Source: a bacterium
GTDB taxonomy: Bacteria > 4484-113 > JAFGCY01
Length of the DNA stretch: 64,000 nt
Direction of reading: 5' to 3'
Assembly (NCBI GenBank): GCA_016932385.1
Contig: JAFGCY010000011.1
Coordinates: forward strand, 20,267-84,266
Below are positions 12,901-26,944 of the stretch, one piece after another (the first letter of the stretch is position 1; each line of letters starts with the position of its first letter). The position numbers were made by a program, and so were the translations under genes. The notes beneath the pieces are model-generated. The model was given only the letters and a program-made list of their open reading frames with translations. It was not told the origin of the DNA and made no database searches.

Positions 12901-13860
12901 GTGGAATCATCCCTCGTTACGCCATGGTGGTTCTGGGTCGCGTTCATCGCCTTCGTCTTGGTGATGCTGACGCTCGACCTGGGCGTATTCCACAAGCGCG
13001 GCCACACCGTCGGATTCAAGGAATCACTGAGCTGGTGCGGATTCTGGATCCTGCTGGCACTGGCCTTTAATGTCATCGTTTATTTCTGGCACGGAACCCA
13101 GGCCAGCCTGGAGTTTTTCACCGGTTACCTGCTGGAATACTCGCTGTCCATCGACAACATCTTCGTCTTCCTGCTGCTAACAAGCTATTTCAAAGTACCG
13201 CCGCGATACCAGCATCGCGTGCTGTTCTGGGGTATCATCGGCGCGTTGATCCTGCGCGGTCTGTTGATTATAGCCGGCATCGCACTGATCAACCTGTTCC
13301 ACTGGGTGCTCTATGCGTTTGGAGCGGTCCTGATCCTAAGCGGCCTGAAGATGGCCTGCAGCGCCGAAAAGAAGATAGACCCATCCAAGAACCCGGTGTT
13401 GAAGTTCCTCCGGCGGGTAATCCCCCTGAGTGATGATTACGACGAAGACCGATTCTTCATCCGCCGGGCCGGCCGATTGCTGGCCACACCGCTCTTGGTA
13501 GTGCTGATCTTCATCGAGCTGACCGATCTCGTCTTCGCCTTCGATTCCATTCCGGCGATTATCGGGATCACGCGCGATGCCTTCGTTGTCTATACGAGTA
13601 ACGTTTTTGCGATTTTCGGACTGAGAAGTCTGTACTTCGCGCTGGCTAATCTGGTTGGGATGTTCCGCTATCTGCCCTACGGATTGGCGGCCGTACTGAT
13701 ATTCGTTGGCATCAAGATGTGCATCGAGCCTTTTTACAGAGTCGAAGTCCTGGCTTCGCTGACAGTGATTGGCAGTATTCTGTGCGTAGCGATCGTCGCC
13801 TCGCTGATCGCCCGGCGTTACCAGCCGGAAAAGGCCGAATCGGCCGAACAAGAATCCTAA
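12901..13860 (+). CDS. TerC/Alx-family integral membrane protein
   Basis: GTG start. TerC signatures are GYLLEYSLSIDNIFVFLL and ELTDLVFAFDSIPAIIGIT. It has multiple TM helices. Confidence 0.9.
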   Translation: MESSLVTPWWFWVAFIAFVLVMLTLDLGVFHKRGHTVGFKESLSWCGFWILLALAFNVIVYFWHGTQASLEFFTGYLLEYSLSIDNIFVFLLLTSYFKVPPRYQHRVLFWGIIGALILRGLLIIAGIALINLFHWVLYAFGAVLILSGLKMACSAEKKIDPSKNPVLKFLRRVIPLSDDYDEDRFFIRRAGRLLATPLLVVLIFIELTDLVFAFDSIPAIIGITRDAFVVYTSNVFAIFGLRSLYFALANLVGMFRYLPYGLAAVLIFVGIKMCIEPFYRVEVLASLTVIGSILCVAIVASLIARRYQPEKAESAEQES

Positions 13861-13892
13861 AGGACTTGACGCCTGGGTTACAATGCTTAGCG

Positions 13893-14531
13893 ATGACCAA
13901 CACGGAAGCTAAATTGAGAAAGCCGCGCCAGCGGCTTGATCCCAGCGATGAGGTGTTGATCGGCCGACTGGCGGAAGGCGACCAGAGCGCCTTTAACGAG
14001 ATTTTCGACCGCTACCACCGGCAGATTTATAACTTCATCGCCAAACAGGTCAATGACCGCGAGAGCTGCGAGGACCTCACGCAGGAAGTTTTCATGCGCG
14101 TTTATAAAAGCGCGAGCAATTTCGATACTTCCAAGAAATTCACATCCTGGCTGTACAAAATCGCCTTGAACGAGGTCAAGCGCCATTGGAAGCGGACCGG
14201 CGCACGGCAAACCTACAGCCTGAATACCCCGCTGAGCAACGAGGCCGGCGAGGCCGAACGCGCCGACTTTATCGAAGACGCCCGTGAGGTGCCCGAGGAC
14301 TCCACCGAAAGCGAGCTGTTCTCCCGCAACCTGCGGCAGTTGATCGATCAGTTGCCGGACAAACAGCGCACCGTCGTGCTGCTGAAGGTCTATCAGGAGC
14401 TGACCTTCGAAGAGATCGCCGAGATCTGCGAATGCCCCTTGAGCACTGTACTATCACGCATGCGCTACGCCGTGGACAAGCTGCGCCGCTGGCTGGGCGT
14501 GGAGGACGGACAGGCCGAATATGGATTGTAA
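13893..14531 (+). CDS. ECF-type sigma-70 family RNA polymerase sigma factor
   Basis: Start taken at ATG 13893 (MTNTEAKL...). Region 2 is FNEIFDRYHRQIYNFI..DLTQEVFMRVY. Region 4 HTH is RTVVLLKVYQELTFEEIAEICECPLSTVLSRMRYAVDKLR. Confidence 0.9.
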   Translation: MTNTEAKLRKPRQRLDPSDEVLIGRLAEGDQSAFNEIFDRYHRQIYNFIAKQVNDRESCEDLTQEVFMRVYKSASNFDTSKKFTSWLYKIALNEVKRHWKRTGARQTYSLNTPLSNEAGEAERADFIEDAREVPEDSTESELFSRNLRQLIDQLPDKQRTVVLLKVYQELTFEEIAEICECPLSTVLSRMRYAVDKLRRWLGVEDGQAEYGL

Positions 14532-14978: not shown

Positions 14979-15130
14979 TTTCTTAGAGTTCTTCCGCCTT
15001 TAACCAAGGTTTCCCGTCATTCTGAGCACCGGTGGCGTACGGTTCACGCCTGTTCACGCCCAGACCCGGTCAGCCAGCTTCCCCATGCCGACGACGGACA
15101 CACCCTGCAAGCGATTATGTGGAGGATGAA

Positions 15131-15946
15131 ATGGTAGATCACGAGCTAGCTACGGCCAACGGCTACAGCGTTACCGCCCGGTATTACGACGATGTCTATA
15201 CCGAGCAAACCGCTCCGGTCGACCAGCCGTTTTACCTCCATTACGCCGAACAGGCACCGGGTGCCGTGTTGGAGCTGGGTTGCGGTACGGGCCGCGTCAC
15301 ACTGCCGCTGGCCCGGGCCGGCCACCGGATTACCGCGCTGGATCTGGCCACGGACATGCTGGCGATTTTCAAGCGCAAGCTGGCCCAGGAGCCCGCCGAC
15401 GTGCAGGAACGCGTCAGCGTGGTCCGGGGCGACATGGCGGAGTTCGAGCTAGCCGAGCGCTTCGGACTGGTGATCTCGCCGTTCCGCGCCTTCCAGCACC
15501 TGCTGGAGCCGGAGCAGCAGCGCCGGTGCCTGGAGCGGGTGGCCCGGCACTTGCAGCCCGAGGGCCGGTTCGTGTTCAATGCGTTCCAGCCGAACCTGCG
15601 CTACATCGTCAAGGCCCAGGAGTTGGCCGGCACGTTCAAGCAGGTCAACCAGGCCACGTTGGACGACGAGAACCGGATCCTGCGGCGCTATGTCCAGCTG
15701 ACGCCACATCCGGGCTTGCAGCGGCATCAGATCCTGTGGAAATACGAGATCTGCGACCGCTTCGGCAAGGTGGTCGAGACCCAGTTGGAAGAGATGTGGT
15801 TGCGCTGGTTCTACCGCTGGGAGGCGGAGTACCTGCTGGAGCTCAGCGGCCTGGCGATTGTCGAAGCCTACGGCGGCTTCGACAAACGTCCGTTGGACGA
15901 GAACGCCGCCGAGTTGATTTATATCTGCCGGCGCAAGGAAAGCTGA
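15131..15946 (+). CDS. Class I SAM-dependent methyltransferase
   Basis: GGAGG lies 5 nt upstream of ATG 15131. Motif I is VLELGCGTGRVTLPLA, followed by ITALDLATDML, VRGDM and LVISPFRAF. Substrate unknown. Confidence 0.85.
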   Translation: MVDHELATANGYSVTARYYDDVYTEQTAPVDQPFYLHYAEQAPGAVLELGCGTGRVTLPLARAGHRITALDLATDMLAIFKRKLAQEPADVQERVSVVRGDMAEFELAERFGLVISPFRAFQHLLEPEQQRRCLERVARHLQPEGRFVFNAFQPNLRYIVKAQELAGTFKQVNQATLDDENRILRRYVQLTPHPGLQRHQILWKYEICDRFGKVVETQLEEMWLRWFYRWEAEYLLELSGLAIVEAYGGFDKRPLDENAAELIYICRRKES

Positions 15947-16039
15947 CGCCGGCTACGTCAGAAACGTAAACCTGTTGTGATGTCAGATGCCCGTACCCCG
16001 GTGCGAGGCCGGTTCTTCCCTAAGCGGAGGAGGAATACC

Positions 16040-16315
16040 ATGTCAGCCGTACTGGGCAACCAGAAATGCGAAACAATCGGCCTGGCCGTGGCGGAAGAAC
16101 TCGTCGTGGTTCAGTGGCTGAAACACGTGTACCACCAGGCCTCAACAAGTTGGGACCGGTGGCTCTACCCCGACGCGGCGGATAATGCGCGCCGGCGGGG
16201 TCCGTCCGTGATTCCCGACATCGTGGCCGTGGAATTCATGGAGCTGTCGCAGCATGCCGACCTGCGTTGGGTGCTGCTCCTTGAGGACGTCAACACTTTG
16301 ACGGCGCGCGACTGA
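16040..16315 (+). CDS. Hypothetical protein (91 aa)
   Basis: GGAGGAGG Shine-Dalgarno 6 nt upstream of ATG 16040. No recognisable motif. Confidence 0.5.
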   Translation: MSAVLGNQKCETIGLAVAEELVVVQWLKHVYHQASTSWDRWLYPDAADNARRRGPSVIPDIVAVEFMELSQHADLRWVLLLEDVNTLTARD

Positions 16316-16390
16316 TCGGTCCACGCCGTCCTGGCGGCGGACCGGCCTGTGCCTCCGGGCCTGGCCGGCCCGTCAGCCAAGGATGAGGAT

Positions 16391-17368
16391 ATGATGGATG
16401 CACTAAGCGAAACTAAACTGACGGAAGCCGTGATGGATCTGGTGGAGGTTGATGCGAGCGTTGATGCACTGCACTGCCAGGGCGTAACCAAACACTTCTC
16501 GGCCAGCCTGGACAAAAAGGACCGGCCGCCGGCGAAGAACCGGTTGCACGGCCTGTGGCAACGCATCGTGCCGCCCCGCCGCCGCAAGCAGGCGGTGGAC
16601 AACGTCTCGCTGAAGCTGAAGCGCGGTGAGATTTTCGGCGTGGTCGGGCATAACGGCAGCGGCAAGAGCACCCTGATCCGGATGATCAGCACGCTGTTGA
16701 CGCCGGACGCCGGCACGATCAGCGTCTTCGGCTTCGATCCGCAACGCGATCCGTACAAGGTACAGCGCCTGATCAACCGCGTCAGTGTGGATGCCGCGTT
16801 CTTCAAGAAACTCTCGGCTAACGAGAACCTGCTCTACGCCGCCCGGCTGTACGGCGTGGAGGACAAGTACGCCCTTAAACGGGCCGAGGAGATCCTGAAG
16901 CTGCTCGGCCTGGAAGAGGGGCGGCTGACCGACAGCTTGCAGGAGCTCAGCCGCGGCATGCAGCAGAAGGTCGCCGTGGCCCGGGCGCTGTTGACCAGCC
17001 CGGTGCTGCTGCTGTTGGACGAGCCGACGACGGGCCTGGATCCCAAGTCCAAGCGCGACGTGCAGGACTTCATCCTGGAGCTGCAGCGGATCCACGACGC
17101 CACCGTGCTGCTGACCAGCCATGACATGGACGAGGTAGAGCGGCTCTGCGGCCGGATCGCCTTGATGAACGAAGGGCACTTCGTCGCCCGGGGTACGGCG
17201 GAAGAGCTGAAGCAGCGCGTGCTGGAGCGGCGCATTGAGCGGGCCGCCAGCGGCGAAACGGCCGATGCCGACAGGCGCAGCAACGGCACGGGCGAGGTCA
17301 CGATGGAGGACGTCTTCATCGAGCTGACCGGCAGCGAGTGGAAATCCGCCGAGGAGGACGTGGACTGA
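16391..17368 (+). CDS. ABC transporter ATP-binding protein (DrrA-like, ABC-2 type partner)
   Basis: Walker A GHNGSGKST, signature LSRGMQQK, Walker B LLLLDEPTTGLD, H-loop LLTSHD. The start at the ATG at 16391 is preceded by AAGGATGAGGA. Confidence 0.9.
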   Translation: MMDALSETKLTEAVMDLVEVDASVDALHCQGVTKHFSASLDKKDRPPAKNRLHGLWQRIVPPRRRKQAVDNVSLKLKRGEIFGVVGHNGSGKSTLIRMISTLLTPDAGTISVFGFDPQRDPYKVQRLINRVSVDAAFFKKLSANENLLYAARLYGVEDKYALKRAEEILKLLGLEEGRLTDSLQELSRGMQQKVAVARALLTSPVLLLLDEPTTGLDPKSKRDVQDFILELQRIHDATVLLTSHDMDEVERLCGRIALMNEGHFVARGTAEELKQRVLERRIERAASGETADADRRSNGTGEVTMEDVFIELTGSEWKSAEEDVD

Positions 17369-17383
17369 CCGTCCCAGTTGGCT

Positions 17384-17953
17384 ATGCAAGTTAGGGTGAC
17401 CGGAAAACTAGTCAGGCTGCGTCCGTTTCAGGATCTGGAGGAACTCGCCACGCTGACGCAAGTACTGAACACGGAAGACCAGTTCTGGGGCTCGAGTTGG
17501 TGGCCGCTGGCGCAAATGCGGCAAGGCTTTGAGCAACATGCCATGTTGGACGATAGCTGTTGGTTCAGCTTTGCCGCCATCGACCGGCTGGACACTCCGG
17601 AGTTGATCGGCTATGAGGTCATCCAATTACCCAAGCCGGGGCAATTGAGTGCGGAGATCGGCACCGGGATTCTAAAGCAGCACTGGCACAACGGCTTTGG
17701 CCGCGAGGCCAAGCAACTGGCGCTGAAGCTGCTGTTTGAAAATTACGCGTTGGAGTGCATTACCGCCACCACGCTGGTCCACCATCGCCGCGCGATCGCC
17801 GGCCTGGACGCGATCGGCATGCGGCGCGAGGGTTCGATCCGGCGCAGCTTTTTCACCGGCGGTAAGTACGCCGACAAGGTCAAGTACATCATCACGCGCC
17901 AGGAATGGCAGCGAATGCAATCAGAAAACGAATCACGCAGGCCCGAGGCCTGA
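17384..17953 (+). CDS. GNAT N-acetyltransferase, RimJ/RimL-like (array member A1)
   Basis: N-terminus MQVRVTGKLVRLRPF. Acetyl-CoA loop region HWHNGFGREAKQLALKLLFEN. It aligns along its full length with the six other type-A paralogs. Confidence 0.8.
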   Translation: MQVRVTGKLVRLRPFQDLEELATLTQVLNTEDQFWGSSWWPLAQMRQGFEQHAMLDDSCWFSFAAIDRLDTPELIGYEVIQLPKPGQLSAEIGTGILKQHWHNGFGREAKQLALKLLFENYALECITATTLVHHRRAIAGLDAIGMRREGSIRRSFFTGGKYADKVKYIITRQEWQRMQSENESRRPEA

Positions 17954-17970
17954 GCACGGAAGGAGCAACC

Positions 17971-18540
17971 ATGACAACGTCAGAGACCAACAAGCAGCAG
18001 GGCTTCGCCGAGGGCCAGCACGTCGTGCTGCGGCCCGTGCTGGAGGACGACCTGGCCGCGCTGGCCGGGCTGATGGCGGAGAACCCGCTGGAACCGCTGC
18101 CCTGGACCCTGCAGCGGCTGAAGAACAAGTTCGAGGACAAGGACGAGCCGGGCCTGTGGGGCAAGACCGCACGCCACTTCGTGATTGTGCGCCATAACGG
18201 TGAGGTCGTCGGCTTTCTCAAGGAAAGCGACGACTCCAACCGCGGTATGCATTGGAACGAGCTGCACATCAAGGACGGGCTCGCCGACCGCGATGTGCTG
18301 GGCGTGGATACGCTGACGGCGTATCTGGCCTACAAGCAGAAATGGCACAATCCGCTGCGGATCAGCTTCGACGTCCTGCGGCCGGAAACTGAGAAAGCCA
18401 CCTGGATGGTGGAGGCCGGCTTCGAGCTGGAGCTAACGCAGGAGCGCGTGCTGTTCTACCGCGGCCAACCCGAAGCGCGCTGCCTGTACACGTGGTTCAG
18501 CGAGGAGTTGCTTAACGCTCCGGCCTGGTCGGAGGAGTGA
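17971..18540 (+). CDS. Divergent GNAT-fold protein (array member B1)
   Basis: GGAAGGAG Shine-Dalgarno before ATG 17971. It is a paralog of 21377..21988 (PWT.QRL...FEDKD.P.LW....VIR...E.VGF..E). It has a GNAT-like length and a VVLRP N-terminal strand, but I cannot find a canonical (Q/R)xxGx(G/A) motif. Confidence 0.6.
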   Translation: MTTSETNKQQGFAEGQHVVLRPVLEDDLAALAGLMAENPLEPLPWTLQRLKNKFEDKDEPGLWGKTARHFVIVRHNGEVVGFLKESDDSNRGMHWNELHIKDGLADRDVLGVDTLTAYLAYKQKWHNPLRISFDVLRPETEKATWMVEAGFELELTQERVLFYRGQPEARCLYTWFSEELLNAPAWSEE

Positions 18541-18585
18541 TCGCCGGCGCCTGACTTGTACTACCGGCGAAATTGGGAGATTGAC

Positions 18586-19158
18586 ATGATTACAACTTGG
18601 ACTGGAGAACGCGTTCGCTTGCGGCCATTCGCCAACGCGAACGAGCGTTGCGACCAGTATGTCGAGATGCGCAGCAAGCCCAATCAGTTCTGGGGTGCCT
18701 GGTGGTCGGCACGGCAGGAAAACAAGAAGAGCTTCGAGGAATCCGGCCTGCTATCCGCCGATAAGTACGGGTGTTTTGCAGTGGAACGGTTGGACACCGG
18801 CGAGTTGATCGGCTTCGAGGAACACGGATTCGTCGAGTCCGGTACCTCCGCCTGGATCGGCACGTTCATCCAACCGGAGCACTGGCACCGGGGCTTCGGC
18901 ATCGAAGCCAAGCAGCTAGCCTATTGCTACCTGTTTGAGAACTTCCCGCTGACGTCCATCGACTCGGGTACGATCGACAACCACGTGCGCGCCAAGCGCG
19001 GATTGCTCGAAAGCGGCATGCATTTCGAGGGCCGGATCCGGCGCTACCACTACATCGAAGGCAAGTATCACGATCTGGTGTTCTACCGGATCTTCCGCGA
19101 GGAGTGGGAGCAGTTGCCGATCCGGCGGATCGCGAAGCGAGGTTCGGCATGCATGTGA
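18586..19158 (+). CDS. GNAT N-acetyltransferase, RimJ/RimL-like (A2)
   Basis: MITTWTGERVRLRPF; HWHRGFGIEAKQLAYCYLFENFPL; tail REEWEQLPIRRIAKRG. Confidence 0.8.
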   Translation: MITTWTGERVRLRPFANANERCDQYVEMRSKPNQFWGAWWSARQENKKSFEESGLLSADKYGCFAVERLDTGELIGFEEHGFVESGTSAWIGTFIQPEHWHRGFGIEAKQLAYCYLFENFPLTSIDSGTIDNHVRAKRGLLESGMHFEGRIRRYHYIEGKYHDLVFYRIFREEWEQLPIRRIAKRGSACM

Positions 19159-19715
19159 TCTATACCGGCGAGCGCGTCCGACTCAGGCCATTCGCCTCGG
19201 CGGAGGAGTTCATCAAGCTCGATGACAACTTCATGGCGGTGCCGAACCCGTTTTGGGGTCCCGACTGGCGGTCCCATGCGAAACGGACGGCCGAGTTCAC
19301 TGGCAACGGCTTGATCGATCCGCTGGCGTACTCCGCCTTCGCCGTCGAGCGGCTGGACACGGGTGAGTTGATCGGGATCGAGGAGTGTGGCGATGTACAC
19401 GCGACGAAGCTGTACACCTGGATCGGGACATTCATCCTGGCGGACCATCGGCGCCAGGGCTTCGGCATCGAGGCCAAGCAGCTGATGATGTGCCACCTGT
19501 TCGAAAACCTGCCGCTGTCCTCGATCCTGGCCGTGACGATGTCGAACCACGCCCGAGCCCTGGCCGGCTTGCAGGTCTGCGGGATGCGCCACATTGGTTA
19601 CAAGCGGCGCGTCCGGCAATGCGACGGGAAAGTGCTGGATGAGGTGATGTTTCAGATCCTGCGCGAGGAGTGGGAACAGCTGCCGATCCGGCGGATTGTG
19701 AAGCGAGGTGCCTGA
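19149..19715 (+). CDS. GNAT N-acetyltransferase, RimJ/RimL-like (A3)
   Basis: MHVIYTGERVRLRPF; HRRQGFGIEAKQLMMCHLFENLPL; tail REEWEQLPIRRIVKRG. Its start overlaps the A2 stop by 10 nt. Confidence 0.8.
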   Translation: MHVIYTGERVRLRPFASAEEFIKLDDNFMAVPNPFWGPDWRSHAKRTAEFTGNGLIDPLAYSAFAVERLDTGELIGIEECGDVHATKLYTWIGTFILADHRRQGFGIEAKQLMMCHLFENLPLSSILAVTMSNHARALAGLQVCGMRHIGYKRRVRQCDGKVLDEVMFQILREEWEQLPIRRIVKRGA

Positions 19716-20272
19716 TGCAAGTTAGCTGGACAGGTGCACGAATACGGCTGAGGCCGTTTGCGGACTTCGCGGAGTATGCGCCGGCGTTTACGGCGACCTT
19801 CGGCGAATCGACGGAGTTCTGGGGCCACCAGCGCTGCCCGATCGATAAGGAGCGCAAGCGATTCGAAGAAACCGGCGCGGTTGATGATTTCCGCGGCCAG
19901 CTCGCAGTGGAGCGACGGGACGATGGCCTGGTACTGGGCTCGATGAGCTACGTGCTCTACCGCAACGGCCTGGGGGCCAACATCGGCACCATTATCCGGA
20001 TTCCCTACCGGGCCCAGGGTTACGGAGTTGAAGGCAAGCGGCTGTTGATCAGCTACCTGTACCAGACGCGCCCGTTGGCGCGGATCGAGGCGATTACCTT
20101 GACCCATCACCGCGCGGCTCGGCGCAGCGTGGAGCTGGCCGGCATGCGCCGGGAGTATGTTCGGCGACGTTGCACCTTCAGCCAGGGCCGCTGGGGCAGT
20201 TGGGTGGCTTATGTGATCTTTCGCGAAGAATGGGAGCAATGGCCGGATCGGCCCGACGCACATAGGGCATGA
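19715..20272 (+). CDS. GNAT N-acetyltransferase, RimJ/RimL-like (A4)
   Basis: MQVSWTGARIRLRPF; YRAQGYGVEGKRLLISYLY. There is a TGATG stop/start overlap with A3. Confidence 0.8.
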   Translation: MQVSWTGARIRLRPFADFAEYAPAFTATFGESTEFWGHQRCPIDKERKRFEETGAVDDFRGQLAVERRDDGLVLGSMSYVLYRNGLGANIGTIIRIPYRAQGYGVEGKRLLISYLYQTRPLARIEAITLTHHRAARRSVELAGMRREYVRRRCTFSQGRWGSWVAYVIFREEWEQWPDRPDAHRA

Positions 20273-21384
20273 CAAAAATGAAGAAACTGAACACACTATC
20301 TCGCCTCGGACAACTGCGCCGTCTGCGCGGACTGCTGCGGCCAGCCTTGGCGGCATATGGGCTCACCGACGCCTTGTGCAAGCTAGTACAGCACGGCGAG
20401 AACACGACCTACCGCGTCGATTCAGCTAAAGGTGATATCGGCTGCCGTGGTGTATATGTGCCGGGCCGATACCTGGCACGGATCCACCGGCCGGAATACC
20501 ATACGCCCGCCGAGATCCGCTCCGAATTGACCTGGCTTACGGCACTGCGCGCCGCTACCGGCTTGGACGTTCCCGAGCCGGTGACCGACCGGAACGGCCA
20601 GTTGGTCATCGAGGCGACCGCGCCGGACGTACCGGAACCGCGGCCGGTCAGTCTGCTGCGCTGGATGAGCGGAACGTTCCGCCACAAGCGGCTGAACGCG
20701 AAGCACATCACGCAACTGGGCCGGCTGACGGCCTGCCTGCACGAACATGCGGCAACCTGGAACCCGCCCGCCGGCTTTACGCGCGGCAAATGGGACTGGG
20801 ACGGCTTGTTCGGCAAGAACTTCGGCCTGGGCCTAAGCGAGCAGGAGTTGTGGAGCCTAGTACCGTCGAATGCACGTGGAGTGTTTTACGAAGCAGCGCA
20901 ACACATCGGCCAGACCATGGCGACGCTGGGACGCGGCGCGAACGTCTTCGGGCTGATCCACGCCGACCTGCATATCGGCAATGTGCTGTTCACGCCCGAC
21001 AACGCGCGGCCCATCGACTTCGACGACTGTGGGTACGGTTACTGGCTCTACGACCTTGCCGTCATCGTCGACAACTTGCGCAACCTGGAGTTGGGCCGGG
21101 AGTATGAAGCCGCATTGATTGCCGGCTACCGCCAGATCCGGCCGCTGCCCGTGGGATATGACGAGCATCGGTTGGATTTCGTCGCGGCCCGCAGCATTAC
21201 GTTGACACTGTGGGTGTGCGGCATGGCACGAATCAACACGAAATTCGCGGCCTGGATCCCGAACGCCATTGAGGACACACGGCCCGTGATCGCCGAATAC
21301 CTGTCCCGGTTCGGCAATGGGACCGGCCGCGGGCTACCAAGAACTGTCAATCAGCGAAAGCGAGGAGACAACAACCATGACTGA
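20269..21384 (+). CDS. APH/CotS-type phosphotransferase (kinase-fold) protein
   Basis: ATGA overlap with A4. Catalytic loop LIHADLHIGNVLF and metal-binding IDFDDCGYG. It is 371 aa. The N-lobe has the NTTYRV pattern typical of aminoglycoside/choline/homoserine-kinase-II-like phosphotransferases. Confidence 0.8.
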   Translation: MTKMKKLNTLSRLGQLRRLRGLLRPALAAYGLTDALCKLVQHGENTTYRVDSAKGDIGCRGVYVPGRYLARIHRPEYHTPAEIRSELTWLTALRAATGLDVPEPVTDRNGQLVIEATAPDVPEPRPVSLLRWMSGTFRHKRLNAKHITQLGRLTACLHEHAATWNPPAGFTRGKWDWDGLFGKNFGLGLSEQELWSLVPSNARGVFYEAAQHIGQTMATLGRGANVFGLIHADLHIGNVLFTPDNARPIDFDDCGYGYWLYDLAVIVDNLRNLELGREYEAALIAGYRQIRPLPVGYDEHRLDFVAARSITLTLWVCGMARINTKFAAWIPNAIEDTRPVIAEYLSRFGNGTGRGLPRTVNQRKRGDNNHD

Positions 21385-21988
21385 GCAGCAGCAGGAAGCA
21401 ACAAGCGCATTGAACAACGAGATCAAGCAGCTGACCGCGGCCCAGTGCATGGCCGCCGGCGAATTCATCCGCCTGCGCGGCGTGCAGGAATACGACCTGG
21501 CCCGGCTGGCGCGGCTACTGGCCGAAGCGCCCAGTTCTCTTGCACCAATGCCTTGGACCGAGCAGCGCCTGCGCGTGCAGTTCGAGGACAAGGATAAGCC
21601 GAACTTGTGGCACGAAAAAAAGAAAACTTACGCTGTGATCCGCCTGGCGAACGATGAGCTGGTTGGCTTCATCACCGAGCACAAGGATGATCACGGCGTG
21701 TTCGTGTTCTTCGATATTGACCAGCATTGCGCGGACCGAAACGAACTGGGCCGCGATGTCCTGCGGGTCTATCGCGATCTGAAGATGGACTGGTCTAAGC
21801 TCCACCGCCTGGAAATCTGCATTCTCGATGTGGAGCAGGACAAGGCGCAATGGCTGGCGGCCACCGGCTGGCAAATGTCCGCGCAGATCCCGCAGATGTA
21901 TTTCCATTTGGGCCGGCCCGCCGACCTGCAGATCTGGGACTGGGTCGCGCCCTGGGCCGAACAACTGGGGGCCGGCGATGGCACGTAA
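21377..21988 (+). CDS. Divergent GNAT-fold protein (B2)
   Basis: ATG 21377 overlaps the kinase stop by 8 nt, and GAGGAG lies upstream. It is a paralog of B1 (see 17971..18540). Confidence 0.6.
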   Translation: MTEQQQEATSALNNEIKQLTAAQCMAAGEFIRLRGVQEYDLARLARLLAEAPSSLAPMPWTEQRLRVQFEDKDKPNLWHEKKKTYAVIRLANDELVGFITEHKDDHGVFVFFDIDQHCADRNELGRDVLRVYRDLKMDWSKLHRLEICILDVEQDKAQWLAATGWQMSAQIPQMYFHLGRPADLQIWDWVAPWAEQLGAGDGT

Positions 21989-22163
21989 GTCGAACCGGCG
22001 CCTGGCGCGGATCAAGCTCTCGGCGCTGCAGGCTTTGCTGGGCTCACCGAACGAGCTGCACAAGGCGCACCGGCTCAATGCCAGCGGTACGGGCGCGCAT
22101 CGCAACAAGAAGCGTTATCAACGCCGGGCCAAGCACCGGCGGGACTATGGAGCAGAATTATGA
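21978..22163 (+). CDS. 61-aa highly basic mini-protein, ArfA-like (tentative)
   Basis: The in-frame ATG at 21978 overlaps the B2 stop by 11 nt. Its own stop overlaps the A5 start (ATGA). It has 17 K/R versus 3 D/E. The segment IKLSALQALLGSPNELHKAHRLNASGTGAHRNKKRYQRRAKH resembles my recollection of E. coli ArfA ([35 protein letters not shown]). Confidence 0.4.
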   Translation: MARKSNRRLARIKLSALQALLGSPNELHKAHRLNASGTGAHRNKKRYQRRAKHRRDYGAEL

Positions 22164-22726
22164 ATACGGTTTACACTGGAGAGCAAGTACGCCTGCGTCC
22201 GTTCAAAGACGCCGCCGAATACCAGTGGCTGATGGCCCACGAGGCACTGGAGCCCAATGCGCACTGGGGCATCTGGTATTACCCCCAGGCTGAGGCCCGT
22301 AAGGACTTCGAAAAGAACGGCCTGCTGCTGACCGACGGCTACAGCGCATTTGCCGTGGAGCACCTCGCCAGCGGCGAGTGCATCGGCTACGAGGAATACG
22401 GCGGCTATAAGCCCGGCCGGCCCTCGGACTGGGTGGGCACGTTCATCCGCAAGGAGTTCCGTCGCCAGGGCTTGGGCGTGGAGGCCAAGCGGTTAAACCT
22501 CTGCCACCTGTTCGAGAGCTTCCCGCTCAACGTGGTCTACGCCGACACCACCGCGACGCACAAGCCAGCCCAACGCGGCTTGGAGTTGTGCGGGATGAAA
22601 CGCTGCGGAGTACGGCGCAAGGCGCACTATTACAAGGGCCGCTTCGTCGATATTCCGCAGTACTACATCCTGCGTAGCGAGTGGGAGCAGCTGGCGTACC
22701 GCCATAAGGTCAAGCGAGGCTTGTGA
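22160..22726 (+). CDS. GNAT N-acetyltransferase, RimJ/RimL-like (A5)
   Basis: MNTVYTGEQVRLRPF; FRRQGLGVEAKRLNLCHLFESFPL; tail SEWEQLAYRHKVKRGL. Confidence 0.8.
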   Translation: MNTVYTGEQVRLRPFKDAAEYQWLMAHEALEPNAHWGIWYYPQAEARKDFEKNGLLLTDGYSAFAVEHLASGECIGYEEYGGYKPGRPSDWVGTFIRKEFRRQGLGVEAKRLNLCHLFESFPLNVVYADTTATHKPAQRGLELCGMKRCGVRRKAHYYKGRFVDIPQYYILRSEWEQLAYRHKVKRGL

Positions 22727-23292
22727 TGCGGACCGTGTTGACCGGCGAGCGCGTTCGGCTGCGACCGTGGGCGAGCGGCGAAGAGCTGTACGACTTCAGC
22801 CGGCGCCACAACACCCGGCCGAATGAGCACCTCGGCCCGACCTGGTATCCGCTCGGTGTCGAATGCCGGCTGTTTGCCGATAACGGCATGGTGAACAGCC
22901 ATGGCCTAAGCGCTTTCGCAATCGAGCTCATGGACAAATGCCAACTGATTGGTTTTGAGGCGGTGACTTTCAGAGACCCACTGTGCATGGATGCCGAAGT
23001 GGGCACGTTCATCCTGGAGCCATATCGCCGTCAGGGCCTGGGCATCGAATCCAAGCAGCTGATGCTGCAGCACCTGTTCGGCAATTATCAGCTGGACCGC
23101 GTCGGCGCCTGGACGCTGGCGACGCACACCATGGCCCGCCGCGGACTGGAACGATGCGGATTCACCTTGGAGGGCCGCCTGCGCCGGGCGTACTACAGCC
23201 GCGGCCGGTACACCGACCGCGTGTTCTACGTCATCTGGCGTGAGGACTGGAAGCAGCTCGCTCAAGTGAACGAACCAGGGAACCAACCATGA
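22726..23292 (+). CDS. GNAT N-acetyltransferase, RimJ/RimL-like (A6)
   Basis: ATG 22726 is preferred over GTG 22723. It gives MRTVLTGERVRLRPW, in register with the paralogs, and the same AAGCGAGG-N6-ATG geometry. Motif: YRRQGLGIESKQLMLQHLFGN. Confidence 0.8.
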   Translation: MRTVLTGERVRLRPWASGEELYDFSRRHNTRPNEHLGPTWYPLGVECRLFADNGMVNSHGLSAFAIELMDKCQLIGFEAVTFRDPLCMDAEVGTFILEPYRRQGLGIESKQLMLQHLFGNYQLDRVGAWTLATHTMARRGLERCGFTLEGRLRRAYYSRGRYTDRVFYVIWREDWKQLAQVNEPGNQP

Positions 23293-23852
23293 TTACGACT
23301 TATACAGGAGAACGGGTCCGGCTGCGGCCGTGGCGCGATTTCGCGGAGTACAGCTCCGTGATCGACCGCGATTACGCCCAGCCGGATCCGTTCCGTGGAC
23401 CGCGCTGGTGGCCGGTGCTGGCGCGCGAGCCGGACTTCGACCGAAACGGCGAAATCGGGCCGGAGGCGTATTCGCAGCTGGCGATCGAGGAGTTGGCCAG
23501 CGGGCAGGCCGTCGGCATCACGGGCCACGGTGCGCTGAAGCCCGGCGCGCTGGCGGTGGACTTCGGCACGTACATCCTGCCGGACTGCCGCTACCGCGGC
23601 TACGGCGTGGAGGCCAAGCAGCTGGCGCTGTGCCGGTTGTTTGAAAACTACCCGCTGGAGGCTGTCCGGGCCAACACCACAGCCCCGCACGGGCGGGCGC
23701 GGCGCAGCCTGGAGCTGTGCGGCATGCAGCAATACGGCCGGCTGCGGCGAGTCGGGATCGCGGACGGCCGCTATTACGACGAAGTGCAGTACGAGATCTA
23801 CCGGCCGGACTGGGAGCTGCTGCCCATCCGGCAGCGAGTTAAGCGAGGTTAA
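23289..23852 (+). CDS. GNAT N-acetyltransferase, RimJ/RimL-like (A7)
   Basis: ATGA overlap with A6. MITTYTGERVRLRPW; CRYRGYGVEAKQLALCRLFENYPL; tail PDWELLPIRQRVKRG. Confidence 0.8.
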   Translation: MITTYTGERVRLRPWRDFAEYSSVIDRDYAQPDPFRGPRWWPVLAREPDFDRNGEIGPEAYSQLAIEELASGQAVGITGHGALKPGALAVDFGTYILPDCRYRGYGVEAKQLALCRLFENYPLEAVRANTTAPHGRARRSLELCGMQQYGRLRRVGIADGRYYDEVQYEIYRPDWELLPIRQRVKRG

Positions 23853-23872
23853 GCAGCAAGTGGAGTTTTATC

Positions 23873-25129
23873 ATGAAGATCGTTAACGAGAAAATCAGGA
23901 AAGTCGTTGCCGGCAACGGGCGCGAGGCCCGCATCTGGGTCGAGCGTCCAGAGCTGGTGGAGGAGCAGGCGCTTAAACAAATCGAGTCAATGCTCGCAAC
24001 GCCCAACCTGGTGGAGCACATCGCGGTGATGCCGGACGTGCACTGGGGCATGGGCGCGACGATCGGGGCCGTGATGGCGCTCGACGACGCGATCATCCCC
24101 AACTGCGTCGGCGTCGACATCGGCTGCGGGATGGCCTGCCACCCGCTGGGGTTGAAATACGAGGGCGAGTTGAAGACGCGCGACCACTGGCGCCGTTGGC
24201 TGGGCCAGGTGCAGCGCTCCATCCCGACGGGCTTCAACAGCCACCAGCCGCATCCGGAGCTGCTTCAAGCGCAGAAGCTGGAGGCACGGGCGGAGCGCGG
24301 CGACCAGGCCGGCATCGAGAACCTGCGCTGTACCGAGTATATCGCCACCACGAAGCGATTCGGCAACGTTGCCGAGATGGTGCTCTGCCAGCAAGGTACG
24401 ATGGGCGGCGGCAACCATTTCCTGGAGATCCAGCGCGACGAAAGCGATAACCTCTGGCTGATGGTGCACTCGGGCAGCCGCCACGTCGGCTACCAGATCG
24501 CCGGGCATTACGCCAAGCTGGCACAGGCCGTCAACCAGCGGCTGGGCCAGCCGGCGGCACCGCACCTGAACTGGCTGTCGCTCTCCACTCCCGAGGGACG
24601 GGCGTATCTCAACGATATGCAGTGGGCGGTGGATTACGCCCTGCTCAACCGCAAAGCGATGCTCAGGCGCGCCCTGGGCGTGATGGGGATCGCCTTCAGC
24701 GAGGACCTGCTGATCAACATCCCGCACAACTACGCGGCGGTGGAGGAGCACTTCGGCAAGCAAGTGGTGGTGCACCGCAAGGGTGCTACCAGCGCGCGCG
24801 TCGACGAGTTGGGGATCATTCCGGGCAGCATGGGCACGCCGAGTTACATCGTGCGCGGCCTGGGCAACTCGGAGAGCTACCAGTCCTGCAGCCACGGCGC
24901 GGGCCGCACGATGGGCCGCAAGGCGGCCAAGAAAGCGCTGAACACCAGCATGTTCGCCGAGGCACTGGCGGGTACGTTCTCCACGGCGAGCGGCAGCTAC
25001 CTGGACGAGGCACCGCAGGCTTACAAGGCCATCGACCTGGTGATCAGCGCACAGGACGAACTGGTGACCGTGGTGCATAAACTGACGCCGGTGATCACCC
25101 TGAAGGACGGCGCCGGCGGAGTGGATTAG
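23873..25129 (+). CDS. rtcB: RNA 3'-phosphate ligase RtcB
   Basis: All hallmark blocks are present: MPDVHWGMGATIG, VGVDIGCGM, GGGNHFLEIQ, HSGSRHVG, HNYA, HRKGAT, IPGSMGTPSY, SCSHGAGR. It is 418 aa, with GGAG 7 nt upstream of the ATG. Confidence 0.92.
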   Translation: MKIVNEKIRKVVAGNGREARIWVERPELVEEQALKQIESMLATPNLVEHIAVMPDVHWGMGATIGAVMALDDAIIPNCVGVDIGCGMACHPLGLKYEGELKTRDHWRRWLGQVQRSIPTGFNSHQPHPELLQAQKLEARAERGDQAGIENLRCTEYIATTKRFGNVAEMVLCQQGTMGGGNHFLEIQRDESDNLWLMVHSGSRHVGYQIAGHYAKLAQAVNQRLGQPAAPHLNWLSLSTPEGRAYLNDMQWAVDYALLNRKAMLRRALGVMGIAFSEDLLINIPHNYAAVEEHFGKQVVVHRKGATSARVDELGIIPGSMGTPSYIVRGLGNSESYQSCSHGAGRTMGRKAAKKALNTSMFAEALAGTFSTASGSYLDEAPQAYKAIDLVISAQDELVTVVHKLTPVITLKDGAGGVD

Positions 25130-25222
25130 CGAGACAGACCATGCATGGACAATCAACCGCGAGATTTTGTCAGCCAGTCAGTTCGGCGCCAAGGCCGCAT
25201 GAATCGGGCTGCCTGCGCGCGC

Positions 25223-25402
25223 CTAACGCTTCGAATCCAAGTCCTCGATCTCGGCAACCAAACCGTCGATTTCGTTTTCCCAGGATTCGATCTGGCGCTG
25301 CATATCCGGATCAGTTGAGTCAGCGGAATCGATCAAGGCTTCGAGCCGGTCAATCTTCTGATGCAGCCTGGAGATTTCCAGATCCAGGTCAAGGTCACAC
25401 AT
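25223..25402 (-). CDS. Small acidic coiled-coil protein (59 aa, hypothetical)
   Basis: This is the C-terminal portion of tracked ORF 25223..26095, taken from the internal ATG at 25402, with GGGGA 6 nt upstream. The sequence has a heptad-like pattern (EISRLHQKIDRLEALIDS...IESWENEIDGLVAEIEDL), with 18 D/E of 59 residues. The rest of the tracked ORF is antisense to the ABC-2 permease. Confidence 0.45.
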   Translation of the reverse strand: MCDLDLDLEISRLHQKIDRLEALIDSADSTDPDMQRQIESWENEIDGLVAEIEDLDSKR

Positions 25403-25425
25403 TGCACATCCCCTGGAAGTAATTG

Positions 25426-25455
25426 TCTCAACATTGTACCAAAGCAATGTTGAGA
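25426..25455. promoter_or_regulatory. Perfect 11-bp inverted repeat (operator- or hairpin-like)
   Basis: TCTCAACATTG (25426-25436), an 8-nt spacer, then CAATGTTGAGA (25445-25455). It lies in the divergent gap between the small minus-strand ORF and the ABC-2 permease. Confidence 0.5.
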
Positions 25456-25504
25456 ACGCCCTTGGGCAATTTCCTGCCTGATGAGGATCTATTGGAGCTA
25501 TCAG

Positions 25505-26371
25505 ATGTCCGTAAATGAAAACCGAATACGGGGCGGAACTCGCGGAGGCGGCCGGCTGGGCCGCGAACTCAGTGCGATCCGCGCCTTCATCCTGCGCGAT
25601 CTCGACCTGACCAAACGCTACCTCGGCTGGGACATCGTCTGGCTGGTCTACAACCTGATCAACGCGGTGATTATCGGCCTGATCGGCCTGTCGAGCGGCG
25701 CTGCACCGGAGCACGTCCCGGGCGGCCAGCCTTATGTTTTCTACCTGCTGATCGGTGCCGTGATGTGGAACTACCTGGCCGTGCTGTTCATCATCATCGC
25801 CGAGACGGTGGCCTGGGAGCGCTGGGAAGGCACGCTGGAGTACACCTTCATGGCGCCGATCCACCGCCTGACGCACCTGTTCGGCGTCTGCGCCTACGCC
25901 ACGATCTACGGTGTAATCCGCACAATCCTGATGTTGGGCATCCTGGTGCTGGCCTTCCATCTGGATCTCAGCCAAGCCAACCTGCTCTCGGCGCTGGTGG
26001 TGCTGATCATCGGCAGCTTCGCAATGGTCGGCCTGGGCCTGATCGCCGCGGTGGCGCCGCTGTTGAGCCCCGAAAAGGGTGCCCAGGCCACGCACATCCT
26101 GCTGGCGGTCACGCTCTTAGTCAGCGGCGTGTACTACCCGATCAGCGTGCTGCCCAAGTGGTTACAGCCGGCGGCGTATGTCGCGCCGGCCTATTGGGCC
26201 CTGGTCGCCGAGCGCAAGGCGTTCCTCGGCGGCGTACCGCTGACGCAACTCGGCCCCGAGCTGTTAGGCCTGGTGGTCAGCGGGCTGGTCTTTATTCCGT
26301 TGGGTTATGCGATCTTCGCCTGGGGCGAGCGCTATGCCAAGCGCGTCGGCCTGCTGAAGCGCAGCGGGTAA
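25505..26371 (+). CDS. ABC-2 type transporter permease
   Basis: Start at ATG 25505 (TGGAG upstream; ATG 25481 is an alternative). It has six hydrophobic helices. The N-terminal cytoplasmic RAFILRDLDLTKRY segment is typical of ABC-2/DrrB-like permeases. Confidence 0.8.
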   Translation: MSVNENRIRGGTRGGGRLGRELSAIRAFILRDLDLTKRYLGWDIVWLVYNLINAVIIGLIGLSSGAAPEHVPGGQPYVFYLLIGAVMWNYLAVLFIIIAETVAWERWEGTLEYTFMAPIHRLTHLFGVCAYATIYGVIRTILMLGILVLAFHLDLSQANLLSALVVLIIGSFAMVGLGLIAAVAPLLSPEKGAQATHILLAVTLLVSGVYYPISVLPKWLQPAAYVAPAYWALVAERKAFLGGVPLTQLGPELLGLVVSGLVFIPLGYAIFAWGERYAKRVGLLKRSG

Positions 26372-26407
26372 TTCGTTGCGAAGCATGGCCGGCGTATCGG
26401 TGCTAAC

Positions 26408-26944
26408 ATGCTGGCCATGCTTCCCGACAACATCTTTTTGGGCTGTCTGATCGTGTTCGCCCTGCGCGTCACCGACGTCTCGATGGGCACCCTGCGCACG
26501 GTATACATCCTGCAGGGCCGGCGGCTGTTGGCCGCCTGCATCGGCTTCTTCGAGGTGCTGATCTGGATCTTCGTGGTCAGCTCGGTCGTCGGTGCGATCA
26601 CGGACTGGATGCTGATGGTGGCCTATGCGCTGGGCTTCGCCACCGGCACCTGGGTCGGGCTGTCGCTGGAGCGCCGCTTCGCGATCGGCTTTACGCAGCT
26701 CAGGGTGATCAGCGACGACAACGGCGAGAACATCGCCAAGGCGCTGTGGGCGGAGGACTTCGGCGCAACGGTAGTCCGCGGACACGGGAAGAACGGCGCG
26801 GTGGATCTGGTGTTCAGCATCGTCCCCCGCCGCTGGCTAAAGCGCTGCGTCAACCTGGCAACAAAGGTCGACAGCGACTGCTTCATCAGCGTCTCCGACA
26901 GCCGCTACCTGTTCCGCGGGTACATGGGCCAGGGGAAGAAGTAA
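26408..26944 (+). CDS. UPF0316/DUF2179-family membrane protein
   Basis: N-terminal TM helices with the pattern LRVTDVSMGTLRTVYILQGRR. A soluble C-terminal domain follows (RVISDDNGENIAKALWAEDFGATVVRGHGKNG). Confidence 0.65.
   Translation: MLAMLPDNIFLGCLIVFALRVTDVSMGTLRTVYILQGRRLLAACIGFFEVLIWIFVVSSVVGAITDWMLMVAYALGFATGTWVGLSLERRFAIGFTQLRVISDDNGENIAKALWAEDFGATVVRGHGKNGAVDLVFSIVPRRWLKRCVNLATKVDSDCFISVSDSRYLFRGYMGQGKK

Follow-up and report, generated by a model that had tools for sequence, protein, structure and literature searches.

The mini-gene at positions 21978..22163 (+ strand) of a 64,000-nucleotide stretch of the bacterial contig JAFGCY010000011.1, here called the window, was analysed through its translation, codon-position G+C content, substitution rates and homologues. 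It encodes a basic protein of 61 amino acid residues, which on these grounds appears to be a divergent DUF7230/ArfA-like member. The mini-gene is real, conserved and under purifying selection, and it is a core part of a gene island. The most far-reaching reading, to which we give a probability of roughly 0.4, is that DUF7230 including the island peptide forms an unrecognised phage and island branch of the ArfA-type ribosome rescue factors, from which the KGKGS loop and the regulation coupled to tmRNA have been lost. In the island, the peptide would be a dedicated rescue arm, transcribed together with enzymes that modify drugs or toxins, with an exporter and, in some variants, with the RNA ligase RtcB. 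An ArfA-like motif and a link to the nearby rtcB gene had been proposed in a first-pass annotation that was made from the sequence of the window.

The mini-gene runs from the ATG at 21978 to the TGA ending at 22163 and encodes MARKSNRRLARIKLSALQALLGSPNELHKAHRLNASGTGAHRNKKRYQRRAKHRRDYGAEL. A recount of the translation agreed with the composition given before, which was 17 basic residues (11 R and 6 K), 4 His and 3 acidic residues. The described overlaps were also found as stated. The TAA of the upstream gene is at 21986-21988, which gives an overlap of 11 nt, and the downstream gene for an acetyltransferase of the GNAT family has its ATG at 22160, which gives an ATGA overlap of 4 nt (22160-22163). 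Inside the end of the upstream gene, 6 nt 5' of the ATG, a GGGGG run (21967..21971, + strand) may serve as a weak Shine-Dalgarno-like element.

The window has a G+C content of about 61% and is rich in chance open reading frames (ORFs), and the coding status of the mini-ORF was therefore checked. In the non-overlapping part of the mini-gene the G+C fractions at codon positions 1, 2 and 3 were 0.67, 0.49 and 0.79, which resembles the neighbouring genes. When it was compared with its orthologues, the ratio of nonsynonymous to synonymous substitution rates (dN/dS) was 0.13-0.37 in frame and about 1.6 in both other frames; the genes next to it gave 0.17-0.25. The codon-position G+C content, the frame-specific dN/dS and the overlaps support the earlier view of a genuine, translationally coupled gene. 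The dS of the mini-gene against the homologous contigs L001 and L002 was 0.25-0.41, below that of the flanking genes (0.65), and no unusual RNA structure was predicted (z = 0.28); small-sample noise or an unrecognised constraint at the nucleotide level could account for the low value.

The contigs of homologues of the upstream GNAT, and later of further relatives, were fetched and gave six island variants, each with a mini-gene. The homologous genes encode 52-62 residues and show that the mini-gene recurs in related arrays. The full arrangement of the window, from the methyltransferase gene to the ABC-2 permease gene and with a kinase and RtcB, was also found in L010. In L001-L007 the mini-gene is 90% identical and in the same position. 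The order in L008/L009 is methyltransferase, ATP-binding cassette (ABC) ATPase, an ORF of 80 residues, mini-gene, a divergent 'B-type' GNAT, further GNATs and RtcB, and that in L024 is methyltransferase, ABC ATPase, mini-gene and GNATs. L044, a contig of 2.7 Mb, has an integrase, the methyltransferase, an ORF of 83 residues, the ABC ATPase, the mini-gene, a B-type GNAT, three GNATs and the ABC-2 permease, and L046-L048 have the methyltransferase, an ORF of 38 residues, the ABC ATPase, the mini-gene, a B-type GNAT, one GNAT and the permease; RtcB is missing from both of these variants. In all variants the mini-gene lies between or beside the ABC ATPase gene and the GNAT genes. Across the variants, the proteins encoded next to the mini-gene share only 34-54% identity with their counterparts in the window, yet all mini-proteins retain an N-terminal MA[RK]K or MSxK and the tail G-x-GAH[RK][ND]K-x2-Y-x-R-x2-KH. 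The mini-gene is thus a core component of the island, and RtcB and the kinase are accessory. In L005 (1439..1620), a 2-nt deletion in the mini-gene (..GCGCCGACAGCTGCAC..) shifts the frame ahead of the conserved tail and no gene was called; either a pseudogene or a mistake in the assembly could explain this.

The island is rare. A scan of 185,579 representative GTDB species genomes with the neighbouring proteins and with the motif found no island, at least in this form, and the literature searched gave no description of this acetyltransferase/exporter island. When the peptide was used as a single-sequence query, a word-indexed search of 5.8 billion proteins and an exhaustive HMMER search of 1.84 billion representatives returned one 90%-identical homologue each; the family is too short and divergent for such searches.

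A spurious ORF, or one that serves just for spacing or coupling and whose amino acid sequence is irrelevant, has a negligible probability. The ORF is very short, has no Pfam match and lies in a GC-rich genome full of chance ORFs. However, purifying selection was found in this frame only, the tail is invariant between variants whose neighbouring proteins have diverged as far as given above, and the family counts about 100 clusters. Together with the DUF7230 profile match, these results effectively refute a spurious ORF.

The family assignment was obtained through relatives of the peptide. The window peptide itself matched no family in Pfam, NCBIfam, PHROGs or PADLOC, and it did not match the Pfam model of DUF7230 (PF23876, gathering threshold 27 bits). 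The mini-protein of L008 reached 14.5 bits with this model (E 0.039), which is under the threshold. A degenerate DNA pattern written for the conserved tail matches the window once, where chance alone predicts 0 matches. With the tail pattern, further small ORFs of 43-57 residues were found in metagenomes and in one viral contig, and tblastn then picked up hypothetical proteins that are annotated in the Pseudomonas jumbo phage PA5oct and in the T4-like Klebsiella phage Marfa. DUF7230 was matched by 7 of 13 such relatives, with a best E value of 3e-16, and PHROGs of unknown function were matched too. A profile search returned 95 clusters of proteins of 37-79 residues, many of them with a precomputed PF23876 label. 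All were described as 'hypothetical', and the named ones came from phages. Together, the profile search and the scan for the motif in metagenomes and viral contigs gave about 100 small proteins that end in GAH[RK][DN]K..Y.RK.KH. When the island mini-proteins were aligned with 23 Pfam-labelled DUF7230 proteins in hhalign, the match covered 26 columns with a probability of 94.7% and an E value of 6e-8. The DUF7230 core motif, x-[AV]-[HE]-[KR]-[DN]-K-x2-Y-x-R-K-x-K-H, is matched by GAHRNKKRYQRRAKH of the window peptide (residues 39-53). From these sequence matches, we place the window peptide among the DUF7230-type proteins as a divergent member, itself under the Pfam threshold.

DUF7230 is a family without assigned function (PF23876; PHROGs 6310, 2701, 1359 and 4586; for example gp0191 of PA5oct and gp268 of Marfa). 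It has the same size range as the window peptide and the tail [GK]-x-[AV]-[HE]-[KR]-[DN]-K-x2-Y-x-R-K-x-K-H in common with it. The window peptide differs by R instead of K at several tail positions, by an N-terminal half that is more ArfA-like and by its context, which is a bacterial island, whereas DUF7230 is mostly found in phages. On a contig of 204 kb (L021, 1879..2550, - strand), a protein of 223 residues carries an internal DUF7230-like motif (..GGGAHRDKSKYDRAEKHKGRD..) near its C-terminus; it could be a fusion or an over-extended ORF.

DUF7230 as a family resembles ArfA. For the comparison, 15 diverse ArfA sequences were taken from plasmid and phage records. In hhalign, DUF7230 and ArfA aligned over 39 collinear columns with an E value of 6e-4 and a score of 23.6, whereas 240 column shuffles scored 7.6 +/- 1.8 with a maximum of 16.3 and none reached the observed score. 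When E. coli ArfA was searched against 24,736 Pfam families, the sole second match was DUF7230, over the tail. A bridging protein is the 'ArfA' of Pseudoalteromonas phage J2-1, MRTANDHDHGRGKTKDNKLKQIVTSDLFRTRVERDKTKYRRKKKHKNREEG, which has an ArfA N-terminus followed by a DUF7230-type tail and lies above both Pfam gathering cut-offs (ArfA 41.3 > 25.5 bits; DUF7230 28.6 > 27 bits). The ArfA of Caulobacter phage Cr30 (L042) scored 27.3 bits with the ArfA model, above the cut-off, and also matched DUF7230 weakly. The layout RNP[IV]A ... PK[IV]xK is common to DUF7230 members such as gp0191 of PA5oct (..RNPVAHHVNTFNKPKVEKDKTKYSRKQKH..) and to the ArfAs of alphaproteobacterial phages (..KRNPIAKALRSSHLQPKIVKPRKGKGSFTRKGK). 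A single ArfA sequence against the family profiles was not significant (E 0.038 and 0.11), and the signal was obtained with the ArfA alignment only. One DUF7230-type protein (P0014) ends in ...FLVAA and the ArfA homologues of L029, L030, L034 and L035 end in LIAA, PIAA or VMAA. These endings resemble the end of the SsrA tag and may be a shared degradation signal.

Bona fide ArfA genes occur in phages, which is a precedent for ArfA relatives on mobile elements. Some of the phage homologues are mis- or unannotated: gp99c of Salmonella phage Arash (L036) is labelled 'ribosomal protein L2', and the ORFs of Pseudomonas phage pf16 (L040) and of Cr30 carry no label.

The window peptide was then compared with ArfA directly. 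The first-pass annotation had aligned the two with a quoted E. coli ArfA sequence, which is exact and identical to chain 3 of PDB 5h5u. Its alignment was reproduced by hhalign, and the resemblance goes beyond composition: the island mini-proteins matched the 15-sequence ArfA alignment over 32 columns with an E value of 1.7e-4, a probability of 50% and a score of 24.3, whereas column-shuffled controls scored 9.5 +/- 2.2 (maximum 17.2) and 0 of 240 reached 24.3. This score suggests a relatedness at the superfamily level and is not a proof. BLASTP gave 14/44 identities with a pairwise E value of 0.002. Residues 1-36 scored 6.4 bits with the ArfA hidden Markov model (HMM), end to end with the ArfA N-terminus, and 5 of 5000 shuffles did as well (p about 0.001), whereas the tail alone was not significant (p about 0.095).

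The segment that aligns with I11-P23 of ArfA in BLASTP, hhalign and the HMM search of residues 1-36 is IKLSALQALLGSP, residues 12-24, encoded at 22011..22049 (+ strand). It lacks the D-N and L-F residues of the ArfA pattern [IV]-x-D-N-A-x2-A-L-[VL]-x-S/D-P-L-F, which includes the residue A18 that becomes ordered against release factor 2 (RF2). The conserved basic tail, GTGAHRNKKRYQRRAKH (residues 37-53, 22086..22136, + strand), combines the DUF7230 core motif with an ArfA-type Y-x-R-[KR]-x-KH and is invariant between the island clades. It keeps the [YF]-x-R-[KR]-x-K-H of ArfA as Y47-Q-R49-R-A-K52-H53. When ArfA, bridging, DUF7230 and island proteins were aligned together, no variation was seen at K44, R49 and K52 and almost none at H53.

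The window peptide has in common with ArfA (PF03889; E. coli YhdL; PDB 5h5u/5mdv/5mgp) a small size of about 45-75 residues, a very basic composition and a collinear order of a basic N-terminus, I-K-x2-A-x2-A-L-L-x2-P and a basic tail that ends in Y-x-R-[KR]-x-K-H; ArfA genes are likewise found in phages and plasmids. It differs by a 3-residue gap or a 6-10-residue insertion, depending on the alignment, by having no hydrophobic or degron-like C-terminal extension, and by its place in a long operon, whereas ArfA stands alone. On these alignments, homology that links the window peptide through DUF7230 to ArfA, as a superfamily relationship, is quite probable.

Other results weigh against an ArfA-type function. 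An HMM search with PF03889 gave no match for the window peptide and 13 relatives even at E<=10 (gathering threshold 25.5 bits; E. coli ArfA as a positive control scored 89.5 bits), and an NCBIfam scan of the window peptide and four island homologues, also at E<=10, gave no ArfA match. The full window peptide had only 5.6 bits with the ArfA HMM (p about 0.012 against shuffles), and the hhalign probabilities against ArfA were only 28-50%. The IK..A..ALL..P segment is present in the window clade but not in the other island variants, and RF2 recruitment may therefore not be a property of the family. The KGKGS loop, the most conserved element of ArfA (K34, G35 and G37 are invariant in the ArfA alignment), is not found in the window peptide, which has ASGTGAH. 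The G-x-G-(S/A)-(Y/H) turn that had been equated with it is probably not equivalent: the family-wide alignment has a 3-residue gap and places A-H-R-N-K-K opposite V-E-K-N-K-K. The regulation also differs. The in-frame TGA overlaps the next ATG, no sign of an arfA-style stop-less mRNA was seen, and neither an arfA-like RNA hairpin (the same fold z of 0.28) nor a terminator-like site on the + strand was found inside the ORF. Short lysine- and arginine-rich peptides are prone to convergent similarity, and some of the DUF7230-like proteins were retrieved by means of a query-derived motif, which is circular; the Pfam-labelled set of 23 mitigates the latter point. In addition, ArfA and BrfA both have a KH motif and are yet considered unrelated (PMC8012679). 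The peptide falls outside ArfA in the strict sense, on the Pfam threshold, the KGKGS loop and the regulation through a non-stop mRNA.

Other candidate relationships were rejected. A profile search against the PDB had designed armadillo repeats as its sole matches, which are spurious and arise through 'LPALVQLLSSPNE'. ArfA is disordered off the ribosome, so that a predicted structure of the peptide would not discriminate between the readings. Resemblances to the ribosomal proteins bL33, bL34, bL35 and bTHX and to the SmpB tail were supported by no Pfam match.

The structures of ArfA show its C-terminus in the mRNA entry channel and the residues Q27-E30 paired with RF2, and the KH motif is reported to make conserved contacts with the channel in ArfA and BrfA (PMC8012679). 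By analogy, the mini-protein would be made from the long polycistronic mRNA of the island by translational coupling and would bind to 70S ribosomes whose entry channel contains no mRNA, for example after cleavage or truncation of the mRNA. It would bind with the C-terminal tail GAHRNKKRYQRRAKH, in which the Y-x-R-[KR]-x-KH end would correspond to the ArfA channel segment. The N-terminal part (IKLSALQALLGSP...) would engage a class-I release factor, RF2 by analogy, which would lead to hydrolysis of the peptidyl-tRNA and free the ribosome. Within the mobile island, the peptide would be the rescue arm in responding to translation-damaging or translation-blocking agents. The most economical functional inference is that the tail binds to mRNA channels that are vacant, and the recruitment of a release factor is less certain. 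That the product of the mini-gene is a DUF7230-family protein of a divergent ArfA-superfamily branch and acts as the ribosome-rescue arm in the island has, in our estimate, an even chance.

The peptide might instead bind the ribosome or RNA without rescue. Its tail would then plug the mRNA channel or bind rRNA or mRNA for silencing, protection or hibernation, and in phages it would help to take over host translation, with no release factor involved. We consider this improbable. The basic tail alone is conserved family-wide, whereas the N-terminal parts vary widely. The KGKGS loop is missing, the segment of the A18 region is not conserved across the family, and the RF2-pairing strand of ArfA, Q27-E30 (PMC8012679), appears as KVEK, GAHK or GAHR. 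The wide occurrence of the family in lytic phages would also fit. However, bridging proteins such as that of J2-1 keep a full ArfA N-terminus together with a DUF7230-type tail, the window clade retains the ArfA-like N-terminal segment, and DUF7230 members keep PKVEK where ArfA has the RF2-pairing QRVE.

The immediate neighbourhood of the mini-gene bears on a further possibility, in which the peptide is a partner of the adjacent divergent GNAT, either as an antitoxin-like inhibitor, as a substrate or as a targeting subunit, and in which the phage copies are orphan mimics that neutralise such enzymes. The analogy is to GNAT toxins that acetylate aminoacyl-tRNA and are paired with small antitoxins. 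In the window, L001-7, L008/9, L044 and L046, a divergent B-type GNAT gene directly adjoins or overlaps the mini-gene, and a lysine-rich tail would be a plausible substrate for acetylation. The constant companions of the mini-gene are the GNATs and the exporter, and not RtcB or a release factor, which also counts against a rescue function. On the other side, the peptide has no similarity to DUF1778/RHH antitoxins or to any Pfam family except DUF7230, and the GNATs are RimJ/RimL-like (PF13302) and not of the TacT/AtaT type. In comparison with the GNAT toxin/antitoxin pairs of the TacAT/AtaRT type, neither the DUF1778/RHH partner nor the aminoacyl-tRNA-acetylating type of GNAT was found here. 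The next gene in L024 is an A-type GNAT, the majority of the family are phage genes that stand alone without a neighbouring GNAT, and the collinear similarity to ArfA would be left unexplained. A role as a GNAT partner is unlikely in our view.

In the first-pass annotation, a rescue factor encoded near RtcB had been compared with the PrfH-RtcB2 pair. The position of rtcB was confirmed: three GNAT genes, starting at 22160, 22723 and 23289, lie between the mini-gene and rtcB at 23873..25129. The association was found in the window and in L008/L009 but is missing from L044 and L046, two variants recovered in full between the ABC ATPase and the permease genes. The proposed parallel to PrfH-RtcB2 has limits, as the RtcB of the window is not of the PrfH-coupled type (139.3 bits with TIGR03073 against a cut-off of 271.8) and no PrfH was found. 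No release-factor-like domain was detected among the predicted island proteins scanned from 15032 to 26944. In PrfH-RtcB2 (PMC9304027) as in the island, a single operon carried by a horizontally mobile element encodes an RtcB ligase along with a putative rescue factor, and the island recalls the PrfH-RtcB2 logic of rescue before or alongside RNA repair (PMC9304027, PMC6514570). The island differs in that three GNAT genes separate the mini-gene and rtcB and that a release-factor homologue is missing.

BrfA and ArfT are likewise small basic peptides that recruit release factors and probe the mRNA channel with a charged tail, and BrfA has a KH motif (PMC8012679). The likeness is by description only; both are considered to have arisen independently, and their distributions are narrow or different. 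A functional parallel to the gene mix of the island is the TrcR regulon of Anabaena, where translation-targeting antibiotics co-induce RtcB, GNAT acetyltransferases and an ABC ATPase (PMC10272220). The TrcR genes are dispersed under one repressor and not in a single operon, and no ArfA-like peptide is reported there. The gene mix of the island would fit a response to agents that attack translation.

The mini-gene is part of a tightly packed block of genes on the same strand from 15032 to about 26400. The order is a methyltransferase, a small ORF, a DrrA-like ABC ATPase, five GNAT or GNAT-like genes, an APH-family kinase, a divergent GNAT, the mini-gene, three RimJ/RimL-type GNATs, RtcB and a DrrB-like ABC-2 permease; all are on the + strand. 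The S-adenosylmethionine-dependent methyltransferase (15032..15946), the DrrA-like ABC ATPase (16349..17368), the five GNAT or GNAT-like genes (17378..20272) and the APH-family kinase (20269..21384) were assigned by Pfam and NCBIfam matches. The top NCBIfam match of the methyltransferase is a methyltransferase of daptide-type biosynthesis of ribosomally synthesised and post-translationally modified peptides (RiPPs), with 135.9 bits under a cut-off of 175, and its matches to rRNA methyltransferases (Erm, KsgA) are much weaker. The small ORF (15977..16315) lies directly 5' of the ABC ATPase gene. A 38-residue peptide at the corresponding place in L046 (184..300) and L047 (1401..1517), ..RWFHPFSEIDSLTARP, resembles its C-terminal end, ..RWVLLLEDVNTLTARD, with a pairwise E value of 2e-4. 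This tiny conserved ORF could be a leader peptide, a regulatory upstream ORF or a precursor peptide.

The divergent B-type GNAT upstream of the mini-gene (21377..21988, 203 residues) was assigned through its homologues P0002-P0004 and its fold. The window copy has no Pfam match, the L008 homologue matches Acetyltransf_3 weakly (E 0.0019), and the family profile matches the acetyltransferase of PDB 3shp with an E value of 1.7e-6. Only three homologous clusters were found among 5.8 billion proteins. The window has two such paralogous B-type genes without a Pfam match, at 17905..18540 and 21377..21988. In L008, L044 and L046, the B-type GNAT beside the mini-gene shares 49-54% identity with the distal copy (17905..18540) and 34-43% with the adjacent one, which suggests a rearrangement or duplication within the array.

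The three tandem RimJ/RimL-type GNATs at 22160..22726, 22723..23292 and 23289..23852 overlap by 4 nt each and match PF13302 (Acetyltransf_3) with E values of 1e-7 to 1e-10; their best PDB match is a RimJ/RimL-family protein N-acetyltransferase. RtcB has 418 residues and matches PF01139 with an E value of 3e-103, and its closest solved structure is Thermus TTHA1785. It is followed by a gap of 350 nt (25130..25480) and by the DrrB-like ABC-2 permease (25481..26371; PF01061, TIGR01247 drrB), the partner of the ATPase. An ORF of 93 residues in the gap (25141..25422) has codon-position G+C fractions of 0.59/0.64/0.40, compared with a third-position value of about 0.8 in its neighbours, and is probably non-coding in that frame. 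About 500 nt upstream of the island, a gene for a sigma factor of the extracytoplasmic function type (13719..14531) lies on the same strand. No convincing internal promoter or + strand terminator was found in the block, and tRNA, tmRNA and Rfam elements were absent from the window. An identity as a known defence system was rejected, as PADLOC returned only generic methyltransferase and ABC-ATPase matches and nothing for the peptide.

The daptide-type match of the methyltransferase, although below the cut-off, and the combination of small ORFs, tailoring-type enzymes and an exporter would also be consistent with an exported cationic peptide, a RiPP-like precursor that the enzymes of the island would methylate and acetylate and that the ABC-2 transporter would export. 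We regard this as very unlikely. The peptide has no recognisable leader/core organisation, a RiPP recognition or core-modifying enzyme was not found, the conserved peptide is also a lone gene in many phages, and seven or more paralogous GNATs are atypical of a RiPP cluster.

Taken together, a rare mobile island emerges from the analysis. It combines a methyltransferase, a DrrAB-like exporter, an ArfA-like peptide, tandem RimJ/RimL-type acetyltransferases and, as optional parts, RtcB or a kinase, and this composition points to a defence against translation-targeting agents. If the peptide is a rescue factor, the island would be a second, PrfH-independent coupling of ribosome rescue to damage repair, and ArfA-type rescue would extend past the known chromosomal genes of beta- and gammaproteobacteria. 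A testable function would also be given to a DUF that is common in lytic phages, among them T4-like Klebsiella, Serratia and Citrobacter phages and the Pseudomonas jumbo phage PA5oct. According to reviews of ribosome rescue, further small factors that recruit release factors probably exist and are hard to detect by sequence (PMC8012679). DUF7230 is a concrete candidate for such undiscovered rescue factors.

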